Shown here: one piece after another, positions 8,668 through 11,361 of the stretch | Layout: every line of letters begins with the position of its first letter | Position numbering within the stretch: the first letter of the stretch is position 1 | NCBI GenBank assembly: GCA_030591905.1 | Contig: JAUVAE010000001.1 | Span: 1-35,321, forward strand | Length of the DNA: 35,321 bases | Direction of reading: 5' to 3' | From: Candidatus Komeilibacteria bacterium | GTDB lineage: Bacteria > Patescibacteriota > Patescibacteriia > UBA1558 > S5-K13 | Notes under the pieces: model-generated | Told to the model about the DNA's origin: nothing | Databases searched by the model: none | What the model saw: the letters and a program-made list of their open reading frames with translations, nothing else | Program-made: the position numbers and the translations under genes

Positions 8668-8719
8668 GTAACAAATTACAAATTACAGATTTCAGATAAT
8701 AATCAATAACCAAATTACA
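8668..8719. repeat. Left arm of a long imperfect inverted repeat enclosing four-helix-bundle gene 1
   Basis: Low-complexity sequence ...ACAAATTACAAATTACAGATTTCAGATAATAATCAATAACCAAATTACA. The reverse complement of 9095-9150 aligns with it; for example, CCAAATTACA matches CCAAATTGCA next to the gene, and ATAATAATCAATAA matches ATAATAAATAAATT further out. Confidence 0.65.
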
Positions 8720-9094
8720 ATGAAAGAAAAGCGATTCAATAATTTTGATTTGGAGGAAAGAACATTTAAATTTGCTAAAGCAGTTTCAATATTTATTAAG
8801 AAATTATCTGTTAATACTAGTAATATAGAATATGGTAAACAATTAATTAGATCTTCCGGTTCCGTTGGTGCTAATTATATTGAAGCCAACGAAGCTTTAA
8901 GCAAAAAAGACTTATTAATGAGAATGAGGATTTCTAGAAAAGAAGCTAAAGAATCTGCTTATTGGATAAGATTAATTATTAGTGTTAATAATAACGTTTA
9001 TGGAGAGGAATTAAATTTACTTTATGATGAGGCAATTGAATTAAAGAAAATACTCTCTCAAATAATTATTAATACAGAAGATAAGAAGAATTAA
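8720..9094 (+). CDS. Four-helix-bundle protein (23S rRNA intervening-sequence protein / Avd-like family)
   Basis: 124 aa. The family signature is present: '...FKFAKAVSIFIKKL...QLIRSSGSVGANYIEANEALSKKD...RISRKEAKESAYWIRLI'. Confidence 0.85.
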   Translation: MKEKRFNNFDLEERTFKFAKAVSIFIKKLSVNTSNIEYGKQLIRSSGSVGANYIEANEALSKKDLLMRMRISRKEAKESAYWIRLIISVNNNVYGEELNLLYDEAIELKKILSQIIINTEDKKN

Positions 9095-9150
9095 TTGTAT
9101 TTTGCAATTTGGAATTTATTTATTATTTGAGATTTGGTATTTGTTGTTTG
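9095..9150. repeat. Right arm of the inverted repeat enclosing four-helix-bundle gene 1
   Basis: TTGTATTTTGCAATTTGGAATTTATTTATTATTTGAGATTTGGTATTTGTTGTTTG is complementary (imperfectly) to 8668-8719. Confidence 0.65.
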
Positions 9151-9151
9151 T

Positions 9152-9248
9152 TTTATCCCCATACCTATTTATTTAAAGTTATTGTGAGGATAAAATAAGT
9201 AATAAATATTAAAAAATACTTATCTATATAGATAAGTATGGGGATAAA
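9152..9248 (+). promoter_or_regulatory. Candidate RBS-sequestering switch upstream of the 7TM gene
   Basis: A perfect 13-bp long-range inverted repeat pairs TTTATCCCCATAC (9152-9164) with GTATGGGGATAAA (9236-9248). The right arm holds the only SD-like purine run (GGGGA) and ends 3 nt before ATG 9252. It overlaps a perfect 24-bp palindrome, ATACTTATCTAT/ATAGATAAGTAT (9216-9239), by 4 nt. Confidence 0.4.
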
Positions 9249-9251
9249 CAT

Positions 9252-9926
9252 ATGTGGATAAAATTTAGTATTTTAATGCTTGTCGCTTTGCTTAATTTAA
9301 TATTAGGTATTTTGATTTCAATAAAAAATCAAGGTAAGGAAAAATTTATTAAATATTTTGTTTTATTGTATTTTAGTGCTACTATCTGGACTCTGGGATT
9401 AGGTTTTGCATTGTTAATTACTGACGCTAATTTATTTTTAATAATCGCAAGAGTTTTTTATGTTGCAGCTACTGTAATAATTTTGTCATTTTTTATGTTT
9501 TCTGTACATTTTTTATATTCTTATAAAGTAAATAAAGTTTTAAAGTATATAATTATTTTATTTACTTTATATATATTTTATATAATTCTTTCCGGAGATT
9601 TATTTATAGGTGTATATGAATATAGAGGACTAATGCATGAACTCGAAGATAGTACATTACATCTCGTTTATGGGATTTATTTTATAGGAATTATGATTTA
9701 TAGTCATTATCTATTATTTTCAAAATATCATAAATCTCAAGGTGTCAATAAAAGTAGATTATTGTTTGTTATTATTGGTACTGCTATTTCGTTTGTGCTT
9801 GGGACTTTTTTCGCTTGGTATATGCCTTATATTAATAAACACTATTTGGATTGGATTGCGCCTATTTTTGTATTTTTTATGACATTTTCGATAAGTTATT
9901 TATTATTTAAAAAGGAAAATGAATAA
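9252..9926 (+). CDS. Stand-alone multi-pass membrane protein resembling the N-terminal 7TM sensor module of histidine kinases
   Basis: 224 aa with about 6-7 predicted TM helices. The N-terminus (LNLILGILISIKNQGKEKFIKYFVLLYFSATIWTLGLGF) parallels the N-terminus of the kinase at 15910 (LSLIIGIFVIWKNSKSTLNRGWFFVSISASIWAFGLFG). Confidence 0.5.
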   Translation: MWIKFSILMLVALLNLILGILISIKNQGKEKFIKYFVLLYFSATIWTLGLGFALLITDANLFLIIARVFYVAATVIILSFFMFSVHFLYSYKVNKVLKYIIILFTLYIFYIILSGDLFIGVYEYRGLMHELEDSTLHLVYGIYFIGIMIYSHYLLFSKYHKSQGVNKSRLLFVIIGTAISFVLGTFFAWYMPYINKHYLDWIAPIFVFFMTFSISYLLFKKENE

Positions 9927-10881
9927 AGTTTTATTGATTTTTTATGGAGGAAATCAACTTTCTGAAAAGAAGGGAAGTTTTGTTTCTGTAGAAAAAGAAT
10001 CTGATATTAATAAGTGGATGCAAGCAATTCCAGAAATTTCATTAATGGCTCAGATTAAGACAGTGTTTATTGATAGAAATAATAAGATATTAGACAAAGA
10101 TAATATAAAAAAGTTGATTCATTATATAGAAGATAATATAGATAAAGTTGATGGAATAGTTATATTAAATGATACTGATACCATCCCCTTATTAGCTAAT
10201 CAATTATTTTGGCAAATTCAAAATCCTAGTAAACCAATAGTGATTACAGGATCAAATGTAATTGAACAAGATAATGAATTCTTACCAGATTTATCATTTA
10301 AAGCTAATTTAATAAATGCCATTCAGGTCGTTAATAGTGATTTAAATGAAGTTAGTGTTATTTATGGTAATAGAGTTATTTTAGCTCCTAAAATAGTGAG
10401 AACTAAACTACATGATTTAAATATATTTAAATCCATTGATAAAGAATATTTAGCTAAGATTGATTTTGGATTGTCAATTAAATCTAGAATAAAGGATAAA
10501 AGAAAAGCTAAATATTATTATGATTTTAAGTATGATTTTTTATTTTTTAATACTGTTCCGGATATAAAAATACTAGAGGTATTATTAAACGAAGATAGTA
10601 ATTTAAAAATTATAGTTTTTAAAGCCTTACCAAATCAGATAATAGAAAGAGAGAAATTAGTAAAAGTTTTTAATTTAGCTCAAAAGAATAAAAAGTTAGT
10701 TATTTTTTATAATCAAATCGGTTTTGGAAAGGATTTTTTTAAGGATACTATTTTAACTATCAGCAAAATTAGCCCAGAATGTTTAACTACTAAATTATCT
10801 TGGATTTTAGGGAAAACTAAAGATGAGAAAAAGATTAGGAATTTATTAAAGAAAAATATCCAGGGAGAATTTTTGAATTAG
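9919..10881 (+). CDS. L-asparaginase/GatD-fold protein lacking the nucleophilic threonine
   Basis: 320 aa. It is collinear with type I asparaginases: 'LLIFYGGNQLS' aligns with 'xxxTGGTIxx', 'GIVILNDTDTI' with 'GxVxxHGTDTM', and 'KPIVITGS' and 'RTK' are conserved. It overlaps the upstream gene by 8 nt. Confidence 0.6.
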   Translation: MNKVLLIFYGGNQLSEKKGSFVSVEKESDINKWMQAIPEISLMAQIKTVFIDRNNKILDKDNIKKLIHYIEDNIDKVDGIVILNDTDTIPLLANQLFWQIQNPSKPIVITGSNVIEQDNEFLPDLSFKANLINAIQVVNSDLNEVSVIYGNRVILAPKIVRTKLHDLNIFKSIDKEYLAKIDFGLSIKSRIKDKRKAKYYYDFKYDFLFFNTVPDIKILEVLLNEDSNLKIIVFKALPNQIIEREKLVKVFNLAQKNKKLVIFYNQIGFGKDFFKDTILTISKISPECLTTKLSWILGKTKDEKKIRNLLKKNIQGEFLN

Positions 10882-10915
10882 GTTTTAGGTGTTAGCTTGT
10901 GGTTTGTAGGTAATT
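10881..10915. repeat. Left arm of the inverted repeat enclosing four-helix-bundle gene 2
   Basis: GGTTTTAGGTGTTAGCTTGTGGTTTGTAGGTAATT. Its core AGGTGTTAGCTTGTGGTTTGTAGG matches the reverse complement of 11328-11361 (AGGTTGTAACTTGTAGGTTGTGGG) at about 17 of 24 positions. Confidence 0.55.
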
Positions 10916-10959
10916 AGAAATTTTTATATATAATTAATAAAAGAAAAGGAAAAGCGATT

Positions 10960-11361
10960 ATGAAAATTAATAAAATTAAAACATATAAAGATTTAATAGC
11001 TTGGCAAAAAGCAATGGATTTAGTTATTGCAGTTTATAAATTGACGGATGAGTTTCCGAAATTAGAAATTTATGGATTAGTCTCTCAAATGAGACGTTGT
11101 GCAGTTTCAATTCCGTCTAATATTGCCGAAGGCAGAAGAAGAGGAAGTAGGAAAGATTATTGTAGGTTTTTGATAATTTCTTATGGATCAGGTGCTGAGC
11201 TAGAAACGCAAGTAGAAATTACAAAAAGATTGAATTTTAGTAAGAATTTGGATTTTATGAGAGTTGACGCTTTATTGAATGAAATTATGAGGATGTTGAA
11301 CAAAATGATTTCAGGATTAAAAGCAGAACCTAAAACCCACAACCTACAAGTTACAACCTAA
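10960..11361 (+). CDS. Four-helix-bundle protein (23S rRNA intervening-sequence protein / Avd-like family)
   Basis: 133 aa with 'YKDLIAWQKAMDLVIAVYKLTDEFPKLEIYGLVSQMRRCAVSIPSNIAEGRRRGSRKDYCRFLIISYGSGAELETQ'. The C-terminal tail ...EPKTHNLQVTT is encoded by the right repeat arm. Confidence 0.85.
   Translation: MKINKIKTYKDLIAWQKAMDLVIAVYKLTDEFPKLEIYGLVSQMRRCAVSIPSNIAEGRRRGSRKDYCRFLIISYGSGAELETQVEITKRLNFSKNLDFMRVDALLNEIMRMLNKMISGLKAEPKTHNLQVTT
11328..11361. repeat. Right arm of the inverted repeat enclosing four-helix-bundle gene 2 (inside the 3' end of the CDS)
   Basis: AACCTAAAACCCACAACCTACAAGTTACAACCTA is complementary (imperfectly) to 10881-10915. Confidence 0.55.

Follow-up and report, generated by a model that had tools for sequence, protein, structure and literature searches.

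The intervening sequences (IVSs) of 23S rRNA genes in Coxiella and Leptospira carry an open reading frame (ORF) for a PF05635 protein within terminal inverted repeats that pair into a long stem; they measure ~430-480 nt, have no promoter of their own and are expressed by read-through from the host gene (PMC4990558). In the S23p IVS, tandem heptamers (GACAGAT) adjoin the ORF, and RNase III cuts the stem of the Coxiella burnetii S23p IVS that carries them (PMC4990558). Within the candidate phyla radiation (CPR), 23S_rRNA_IVP and GIY-YIG ORFs have been found in insertion sequences of 16S and 23S genes (PMC11270868). Here we describe elements with the same gene-in-a-stem layout, a similar size and likewise no promoter of their own that lie outside rRNA, on a 35,321-nt contig of a Candidatus Komeilibacteria genome (JAUVAE010000001.1, contig C90 of genome G000; the whole contig is called the window). 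Two genes for four-helix-bundle (4HB) proteins of the PF05635 family each sit between mirror-image arrays of 7-nt units, and arrays of this kind also recur across the genome as hairpins without a gene. Like the CPR rRNA inserts, the elements are small inserts in transcribed DNA, in the same radiation and with the same gene families.

REPIN-RAYT systems consist of REP hairpin repeats and a domesticated IS200/IS605-type transposase. They resemble the elements described here in that a single gene is bracketed by a repeat in inverted orientation, further copies of which are scattered as intergenic hairpins without a gene, in that gene and repeat co-occur at the genome level, and in their long-term vertical inheritance. 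However, RAYT is a Y1 transposase, whereas the protein here is a small 4HB protein with no known catalytic activity, and a single conserved palindrome in REPINs contrasts with tandem 7-nt arrays of many unit types. The heptameric intergenic repeats of Xanthomonas and Nostoc (GGGNATC type) have been attributed to G-quadruplex formation, with no gene family named (PMC4692102). These repeats, and the short tandemly repeated repetitive sequences of cyanobacteria, are likewise abundant tandem 7-nt repeats of typically ~4 units that lie between co-directional genes and are transcribed, but the units here are AT-rich or YAG-type, incapable of forming G-quadruplexes, and arranged as inverted pairs around a gene. 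A more distant likeness is to Avd of diversity-generating retroelements (DGRs), which has a pentameric nucleic-acid-binding 4HB fold. To our knowledge, both rRNA IVS elements and bacterial 7-nt intergenic repeats have remained without explanation for more than 30 years, and the PF05635 family, whose structure is solved, still lacks a function outside DGRs. In full-text literature searches we came across no account of heptamer-armed 4HB cassettes in operons, nor of such cassettes co-occurring with heptamer arrays.

Two four-helix-bundle genes within inverted arrays of 7-nt units

The G000 assembly comprises 750 kb in 118 contigs (81% complete, 28.6% GC), and the nearest protein relatives are found in metagenome-assembled genomes of Patescibacteria/CPR. 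The relatives compared include a sister species, G003 (80% amino acid (aa) identity to G000 in the asparaginase-like gene), and two congeners, G001 and G004. Both window 4HB genes sit within a long co-directional gene run, and synteny among relatives shows that the order seven-transmembrane (7TM) gene, asparaginase-like gene, orf203 and acyl-CoA-synthetase-like gene is kept throughout the family. Rfam and tRNA scans of the window found no Rfam family, rRNA or tRNA, and a promoter scan, with fewer matches than in shuffled sequence, was uninformative. We refer to the two window elements as cassettes 1 and 2 (Table 1) and to a third copy, in the nusG-rplK spacer (C2:20650-21045), as cassette 3; this is the sole other family member in the genome and has the same layout.

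Table 1. Coordinates of cassettes 1 and 2 and their associated features in the window.
Feature	Coordinates	Strand	Description
Host context of cassette 1	8596-8656	+	promoter-like TTGACA-17-TAAGTT, 8596-8624; TAGACGGCT repeats, 8630-8638 and 8648-8656
Cassette 1, 5' arm	8670-8720	+	seven 7-nt units reaching the ATG; inverted repeat; strict period-7 array 8666-8699
Cassette 1, gene	8720-9094	+	124 aa 4HB protein, PF05635/TIGR02436
GAAAAGCGAT motif	8726-8735	+	within the first codons of the cassette 1 gene
Cassette 1, 3' arm	9095-9152	+	ATTTGNN-type units; inverted repeat 9102-9152; array 9125-9152
Cassette 2, 5' arm	10876-10915	+	TAGGTTT TAGGTGT TAGCTTG TGGTTTG TAGGTAA; inverted repeat
Cassette 2, leader	10916-10959	+	GAAAAGCGAT at 10949-10958, abutting the ATG
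Cassette 2, gene	10960-11361	+	133 aa 4HB protein; final ~11 codons arm-encoded, not conserved
Cassette 2, 3' arm	11328-11363	+	ACCTA-type units; boundary set against the G003 empty site

Both window proteins match the family profiles over the full domain and above the curated cut-offs. Against PF05635 (cut-off 33.8 bits) the cassette 1 protein scores 50.3 bits (E = 3e-13) and the cassette 2 protein 127.9 bits (E = 2.3e-37); against TIGR02436 (cut-off 24) the scores are 70.7 (1.1e-19) and 125.2 bits (1.2e-36). The cassette 2 protein also matches PDB 2GSC, a pentameric Xanthomonas protein (1.5e-26), and PADLOC found no defence-system match for the 4HB proteins. With these matches and the arms described below, the initial annotation was right to place two 4HB genes outside rRNA, each in its own imperfect inverted repeat, and its arm coordinates agree within a few nt with the recomputed repeats. 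The homology to Avd that it also proposed comes down to weak profile matches (bAvd, E = 0.004; NF033474, E = 1.3e-4), which are marginal.

The 5' arm of cassette 1 reads CAAATTA CAAATTA CAGATTT CAGATAA TAATCAA TAACCAA ATTACAA, and the two arms mirror one another unit by unit and in register. They are 75% complementary over 51 nt (8670-8720 and 9102-9152), and the predicted arm duplex has 45 pairs and -38.7 kcal/mol. The arms of cassette 2 are 78% complementary over 36 nt (10876-10911 and 11328-11363). This cassette is tightly fitted between its neighbours: the stop codon of the upstream asparaginase-like gene is the first TAG (10879-10881) of the 5' arm, and the 3' arm, which forms the last ~11 codons of the 4HB gene as first annotated, stops shortly before the ATG of the next gene (11366).

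Inverted repeats were identified by local alignment of each 5' flank with the reverse-complemented 3' flank; self-BLAST returned mostly AT-rich quasi-palindromes and did not recover cassette 1. All three cassettes beat 500 of 500 shuffles in this alignment and ranked fourth, fifth and about tenth (tied) among 281 small ORFs of G000. A chance origin of the arms, namely that they are no better than shuffled sequence, was considered from the start and is rejected on this result. The catalogue of family members in the genome likewise removes the concern that others might lack inverted repeats, since all three carry flanking arms. Folds of the arms alone gave z = -5.9, -2.3 and -1.9 for cassettes 1, 2 and 3, the weaker values of the latter two arising because their GT-rich and CA-rich arms still pair after shuffling. 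In whole-cassette folds the long-range stem is kept in both the minimum free energy (MFE) and the centroid structures, in line with the stem first proposed, and terminal complementary sequences thus enclose the insert as in an IVS. A strict period-7 detector flags the arms, showing that they are runs of 7-nt units; their earlier description as short-period low-complexity repeats was correct as to repeats, but they are not generic low complexity, and both the periodicity and the gene-less arrays had been missed.

Among the arm mismatches, wobble-compatible ones are equally frequent in the sense (27) and antisense (27) readings, and 126 mismatches are transversions, suggesting that complementarity was not mainly shaped by selection for a sense-RNA helix. 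It has the appearance of inverted copies made at the DNA level that have since decayed, or of binding units set out in arrays.

A 10-mer, GAAAAGCGAT, lies at the start of each of the three 4HB genes or immediately ahead of it (C2:20652-20661 in cassette 3), in three different reading registers, and in most 4HB homologues of the same order. It has seven exact copies in the genome, compared to ~1.3 expected, and a variant, GAAAAGTGAT, precedes a GIY-YIG gene. We rejected GAAAAGCGAT as a universal cassette element, as it is all but missing from this protein subfamily in other phyla (2 of 80 loci outside the lineage) and its other genomic copies are unrelated to 4HB genes. Possibly it acts as a signal for translation initiation that is specific to this lineage.

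Filled, empty and remnant sites

The cassettes are discrete ~480-nt units with sharp boundaries that occur in filled, empty and decayed states among congeners. At the junction of the asparaginase-like gene and orf203, the spacer is 7 nt (GAATCTATAATTATATG) in G003 and ~10-30 nt in other genera, and 482 nt are inserted in G000. G004 holds an orthologous cassette at this junction in which the unit is altered in both arms (TTAGCTT / AAGCTAA, compared to TAGGTTT / AACCTA), while in G001 all that is left is the first of the 5' units, ~35 nt from the end of the ORF, and the 3' arm; this remnant closely resembles the matching part of the G004 cassette. The cassette-sized indels anticipated by the initial annotation are therefore present, as filled, empty and remnant states of one junction.

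Cassette 1 has an orthologue in G001, which shares the CAAATNN unit, and is absent from G003. The promoter-like element and the two TAGACGGCT repeats upstream of it are kept in G003 and, more loosely, in G001, and their conservation places cassette 1 in the 5' untranslated region (UTR) of the 7TM gene. G000 and G004 carry cassette 3 in its spacer, whereas this spacer is empty in most other genera and in G003 and G002. In G020 the same nusG-rplK spacer holds a gene-less hairpin (three CGTAATT units, a loop and three further units) whose unit is that of a 4HB cassette elsewhere in G020, and in G010, G012 and G014 it holds arrays. In G000 the successive spacers of secE-nusG-rplK-rplA measure 192, 494 and ~112 nt, and arrays or cassette 3 are found in every one of them; in G003 they measure 18, 61 and 24 nt.

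No target-site duplication or direct repeat was found at the boundaries of the three cassettes in comparison with empty sites, a comparison limited by site divergence, and no transposase or other catalytic protein was found with the cassettes; for a transposon or miniature inverted-repeat transposable element, a target-site duplication and a transposase would be expected. Thus, the description of these elements as autonomous structured cassettes holds as regards discrete, structured units, but autonomy is not supported.

The cassette 1 orthologue at the same site in G001 has 69% aa identity (dN/dS 0.14), and the cassette 2 orthologue at the same junction in G004 has ~60% (dN/dS 0.12). The 4HB proteins are thus maintained by purifying selection. 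The neighbouring asparaginase-like gene has a dN/dS of 0.19-0.20 and a dN about equal to that of the 4HB genes, indicating that the cassettes are old vertical residents rather than recent arrivals. They therefore go back to the ancestor shared by the genus or further, and their absence from G003 is most simply read as loss.

Several side observations concern these spacers. Between cassette 1 and the 7TM gene (9152-9248) lies a 24-nt inverted repeat of 88% (ATCCCCATACCTAT ... ATAGGTATGGGGAT type), which is kept in G001 and is gone along with cassette 1 in G003. A CCCTGTTAAAT...ATTTAACAGGG hairpin at 8517-8599, which overlaps at its 3' end with the TTGACA of the promoter-like element of the 7TM gene, belongs to a dispersed family with copies on C58, C102, C10 and C86 and in spacers of G001 and G002. 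A leader-like hairpin before rplK (GATTTAGATAATCTTCGGATT..GCTTCTCTAG) is conserved where the nusG-rplK spacer is empty (L033, L037; compared with L035, L002 and L034) and is missing wherever a cassette or other hairpin element fills that spacer. In the G004 copy of cassette 3 (L034), ATA replaces the ATG of MKSDL..., so that this copy may use another start or be decaying, and several 4HB matches in relatives contain internal stop codons.

Arm units across relatives and phyla

Among the 32 homologue loci in relatives, most are flanked by arms of ~7-nt units, each locus with its own unit. To cover a wider range we took 79 loci of the cassette 2 gene subfamily, for which the closer subfamily alignment was used, from Patescibacteria, Bacteroidota, Proteobacteria, Firmicutes, Planctomycetota and others. 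At 46 of these 79 loci the flanks score above the 95th percentile of mismatched-flank controls, and at 29/79 above the 99th. The unit varies by protein subfamily: YAG(G/C)T goes with the cassette 2 gene type, AT-rich AATTT/CAAAT units go with the cassette 1 and cassette 3 gene types, and other 4HB subfamilies have GTAAY and TAAG units.

Within the cassette 2 gene subfamily the polarity of the arms relative to the gene is fixed, with the YAG-type strand reading inward. TAG occurs in all three frames of the 60 nt upstream at 31 of 80 loci on the sense strand, compared to 3/80 on the opposite strand, and the mirror of this pattern is found downstream (21/80 vs 1/80). Because 7 leaves a remainder of 1 on division by 3, a run of three units with a TAG places a stop in every frame.

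These cassettes differ from the IVSs in their location, as IVSs lie in an rRNA helix while the G000 cassettes lie between protein-coding genes of conserved synteny or in a 5' UTR. The Coxiella ORF is also decaying (PMC4990558), in contrast to the cassette proteins with their dN/dS of 0.12-0.14. The CPR inserts, too, lie in 16S and 23S genes, whereas no 4HB gene was found inside the 23S genes of the five relatives with a detectable one. A 23S rRNA gene was not found in the 81%-complete G000 assembly. As a side observation, the 23S genes of three relatives contain an additional ~1-2 kb, which is typical for CPR (G001:C7:34381-39277, G003:C5:73339-76473 and G004:C12:27230-30504).

Heptamer arrays and gene-less hairpins across the genome

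Arrays were counted with a strict lag-k detector with shuffle and period controls, low-threshold TRF being too noisy. G000 has 61 period-7 arrays, compared to two in the shuffled genome, one array of period 8 and 22 of period 6. Some of them share their sequence with cassette arms. A gene-less hairpin in the secE-nusG spacer (~C2:19910-20030), with a few nt between its halves, aligns with both arms of cassette 1, and the 3' arm is identical to it at 49 of 57 nt (C2:19982-20025). Arms of the cassette 3 type are matched on ~15 contigs, and the match at C97:2275-2394 extends to the terminal AAACATTCA. For cassettes 1 and 3, the repeat that flanks the gene is therefore also dispersed without it, as in REPIN-RAYT systems.

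The density of these arrays follows the presence of 4HB genes. Per 100 kb, there are 8.1 period-7 arrays in G000 (three 4HB genes), 15.3 in G004 (13 genes), 13.6 in G001 (six) and 6.9 in G006 (five), compared to 0.5 in G003, 1.3 in G005 and 0 in both G023 and G017, none of which has a 4HB gene. Period-5 and period-6 arrays are near background in the seven AT-rich genomes, and G017 (43% GC) is lower throughout. In 41 genomes, the count of an AGNT-x4 heptamer pattern correlates with 4HB copy number (Spearman rho 0.72, p = 1e-7), with a median of 6 in genomes with 4HB genes and 0 in those without. A custom profile found no 4HB gene in G003, G005, G013, G017, G023, G027 and G037. Gene and repeat family thus co-occur at the genome level, as in REPIN-RAYT systems, with G027 and G019 as exceptions. 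As relatives without the 4HB family also lack almost all such repeats, our data suggest that the 4HB gene and the heptamer repeats form one poorly described genetic system.

As the initial annotation stated, neither a reverse transcriptase nor rRNA accompanies the genes: no RVT_1 match was found in G000, and none in the 100%-complete G006, which has five 4HB genes and many arrays.

Other gene-in-hairpin elements

Genes of other kinds were also observed in hairpins. In the window, a DUF559 gene (Vsr-like endonuclease fold, 12293-12649) lies inside a GC-rich stem (12209-12716) of -57.5 kcal/mol, much stronger than those of the cassettes, and this unit is nested between inverted CGAATTA-type heptamer arrays at 11988-12012 and 12737-12782. 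Similar GC-rich arms flank another DUF559 gene, on C32, so that DUF559 genes are a second gene-in-hairpin family in G000. A gene-less GC-rich hairpin of -70 kcal/mol in the spacer before tgt (6340-6494) shares its sequence type with the DUF559 arms and has kin on C72, C10, C86 and C63 and in the nusG-rplK spacer of G001. On the minus strand of C28 (reverse-complement coordinates 4294-4587), a 97-aa GIY-YIG-like gene lies in a GC-rich stem of -63 kcal/mol, flanked by what look like the 3' terminus of a tRNA gene and the beginning of a different one; it is reminiscent of the GIY-YIG ORFs described from rRNA genes of CPR bacteria. On C53 (3361-4037), an HD-domain-like gene lies between inverted TAGTTTG-type heptamer arrays, and on C86 (5376-6084), a 190-aa membrane-protein gene lies between inverted AATTTGA-type arrays (58 nt, 79%). 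The last two show that heptamer arms are not exclusive to 4HB genes.

Interpretation and alternative explanations

The gene-in-a-stem cassette reading given in the initial annotation is supported and has been strengthened by the comparisons above. We propose that the 4HB gene is the cargo of a heptamer-armed four-helix-bundle cassette, made up of a 7-nt array, the gene and the mirror array, which resembles an IVS and would be part of, and maybe sustain, a genome-wide population of heptamer hairpins in the manner of REPIN/RAYT without a transposase. Our confidence in this proposal is evenly balanced, because the protein-repeat dependence, the copying mechanism and the RNA processing are all inferred.

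The cassette is lodged exactly at a junction of co-directional genes and would be the protein-coding-operon counterpart of the ORF-bearing 23S rRNA IVSs. The 4HB pentamer may recognise the heptamer arrays and may be needed for their spread or persistence, a role suggested by analogy with that of RAYT for REPINs; gene-bearing copies would then act as masters and gene-less hairpins as their dependants. Copying could take place at the DNA level, with host enzymes producing the inverted duplications or hairpin intermediates. Once transcribed with the operon, the arms, here whole arrays of 7-nt units, would pair and be cut by host RNase III, as in the Coxiella IVS, which would release the 4HB mRNA and insulate the neighbouring genes. 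The TAG-bearing units would shut all three frames at the cassette edge. By comparison with the IVSs, RNase III processing of the operon transcript is plausible, and such processing together with frame-independent translational stops would be the cassette's probable behaviour in an operon. RNase III is encoded in all seven genomes tested, including G000.

More broadly, PF05635 pentamers and heptamer arrays might constitute one widespread protein-repeat system without a transposase of its own, in which the cassettes are the masters and the protein recognises the units and sustains or spreads gene-less hairpins. The 23S IVSs would then be copies that landed in rRNA, and heptameric intergenic repeats would gain a cognate protein. 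We offer this extension tentatively and lean somewhat against it.

Several observations weigh against the cassette proposal. The sense strand has no G·U bias, which speaks against an RNA stem as the main selected feature. No catalytic protein, target-site duplication or recent movement was seen, and the copies here appear to be vertically inherited. A gene-less copy of the cassette 2 arms was not found in the G000 assembly, which is 81% complete. Arrays also occur without the gene: there are 16 in G027, which lacks 4HB genes, and 10 in G019, whose only 4HB match is marginal, and the array families AAGTT, CGTAATT and TAGTT of G000 have no cognate 4HB gene in that genome. Heptamer arms also flank the HD-like gene of C53, the membrane-protein gene of C86 and the DUF559 gene of the window. 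Finally, the correlation of genes with arrays could reflect a shared loss mechanism rather than dependence.

The two main rival explanations each seem to us unlikely, and about equally so. In the first, the heptamer hairpins are primary, expanding by themselves or maintained by the host (for example through slippage or a REP-like process), and small selfish genes, 4HB genes among them, insert or persist in their loops, the 4HB protein having a function unrelated to the repeats. This would account for the predominance of gene-less arrays over genes (61 to 3), for the gene-less hairpin and arrays in the nusG-rplK spacers of G020, G010, G012 and G014, for the arrays of G027 and for the other genes between heptamer arms. 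However, the ancestral state of the cassette 2 junction, as seen in outgroup genera, is 10-30 nt of bare spacer that contains no hairpin, and neither the match of arm-unit type to protein subfamily nor the coupling of arm polarity to gene orientation favours this explanation. The near-absence of arrays where 4HB genes are lacking is also unexpected for a host-generated repeat.

The second rival holds that the arms serve the RNA alone, as an RNase III or translation-control stem for the 4HB gene in a polycistronic transcript, exactly as in an rRNA IVS, with no mobility at the DNA level and no link to other arrays. It draws on the long-range stem in the MFE and centroid folds, on the presence of RNase III, on the experimental precedent in Coxiella (PMC4990558) and on the cassette 1 arm, which reaches the start codon so that pairing could gate translation. 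Opposed to it are the parity of sense-strand G·U with A·C mismatches and the predominance of transversions, the modest z-scores of cassettes 2 and 3, the occurrence of the same arms elsewhere as gene-less hairpins and the genome-wide correlation of arrays with 4HB genes.

A third explanation, which we consider improbable, is that gene and repeat co-occur because lineages differ in their tolerance of palindromes, through a hairpin nuclease or a replication property, such that lineages that delete hairpins lose the cassettes too. Long inverted repeats are prone to deletion, and G003 has cleanly lost the cassettes, nearly all arrays and the unrelated adjacent hairpin. Nevertheless, such a purge would explain neither why arrays bracket this one gene family across phyla nor the match of unit to subfamily and the fixed polarity. 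Least probable of all, and very much so, is that the proteins are Avd-like accessories of a DGR or the repeats chance low-complexity matches: for all the weak Avd profile matches and the AT-rich genome, G000 and G006 have no reverse transcriptase, the repeats are inverted heptamer arrays with no template/variable repeat pair, and the arms beat every shuffle. An Avd-reverse transcriptase mechanism was likewise rejected because the enzyme is absent from G000 and the array-rich G006 and present in the array-poor G005. The cassette proteins are not Y1 (IS200/IS605-like) transposases either, as they match the 4HB family only.

In summary, this locus links rRNA IVSs, 7-nt intergenic repeats and the PF05635 family in a testable form, as it offers bounded cassettes, orthologous filled, empty and remnant sites, and gene-less hairpins with the same arms. 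In the sister pair G000 and G003, the genome without 4HB genes has heptamer arrays at a density 16-fold lower than the other. Should the arrays indeed depend on the 4HB protein, the cassettes would represent a system of a new kind, in which repeats are propagated or maintained by means of a non-enzymatic scaffold protein, and would be a source of compact, frame-independent operon insulators.

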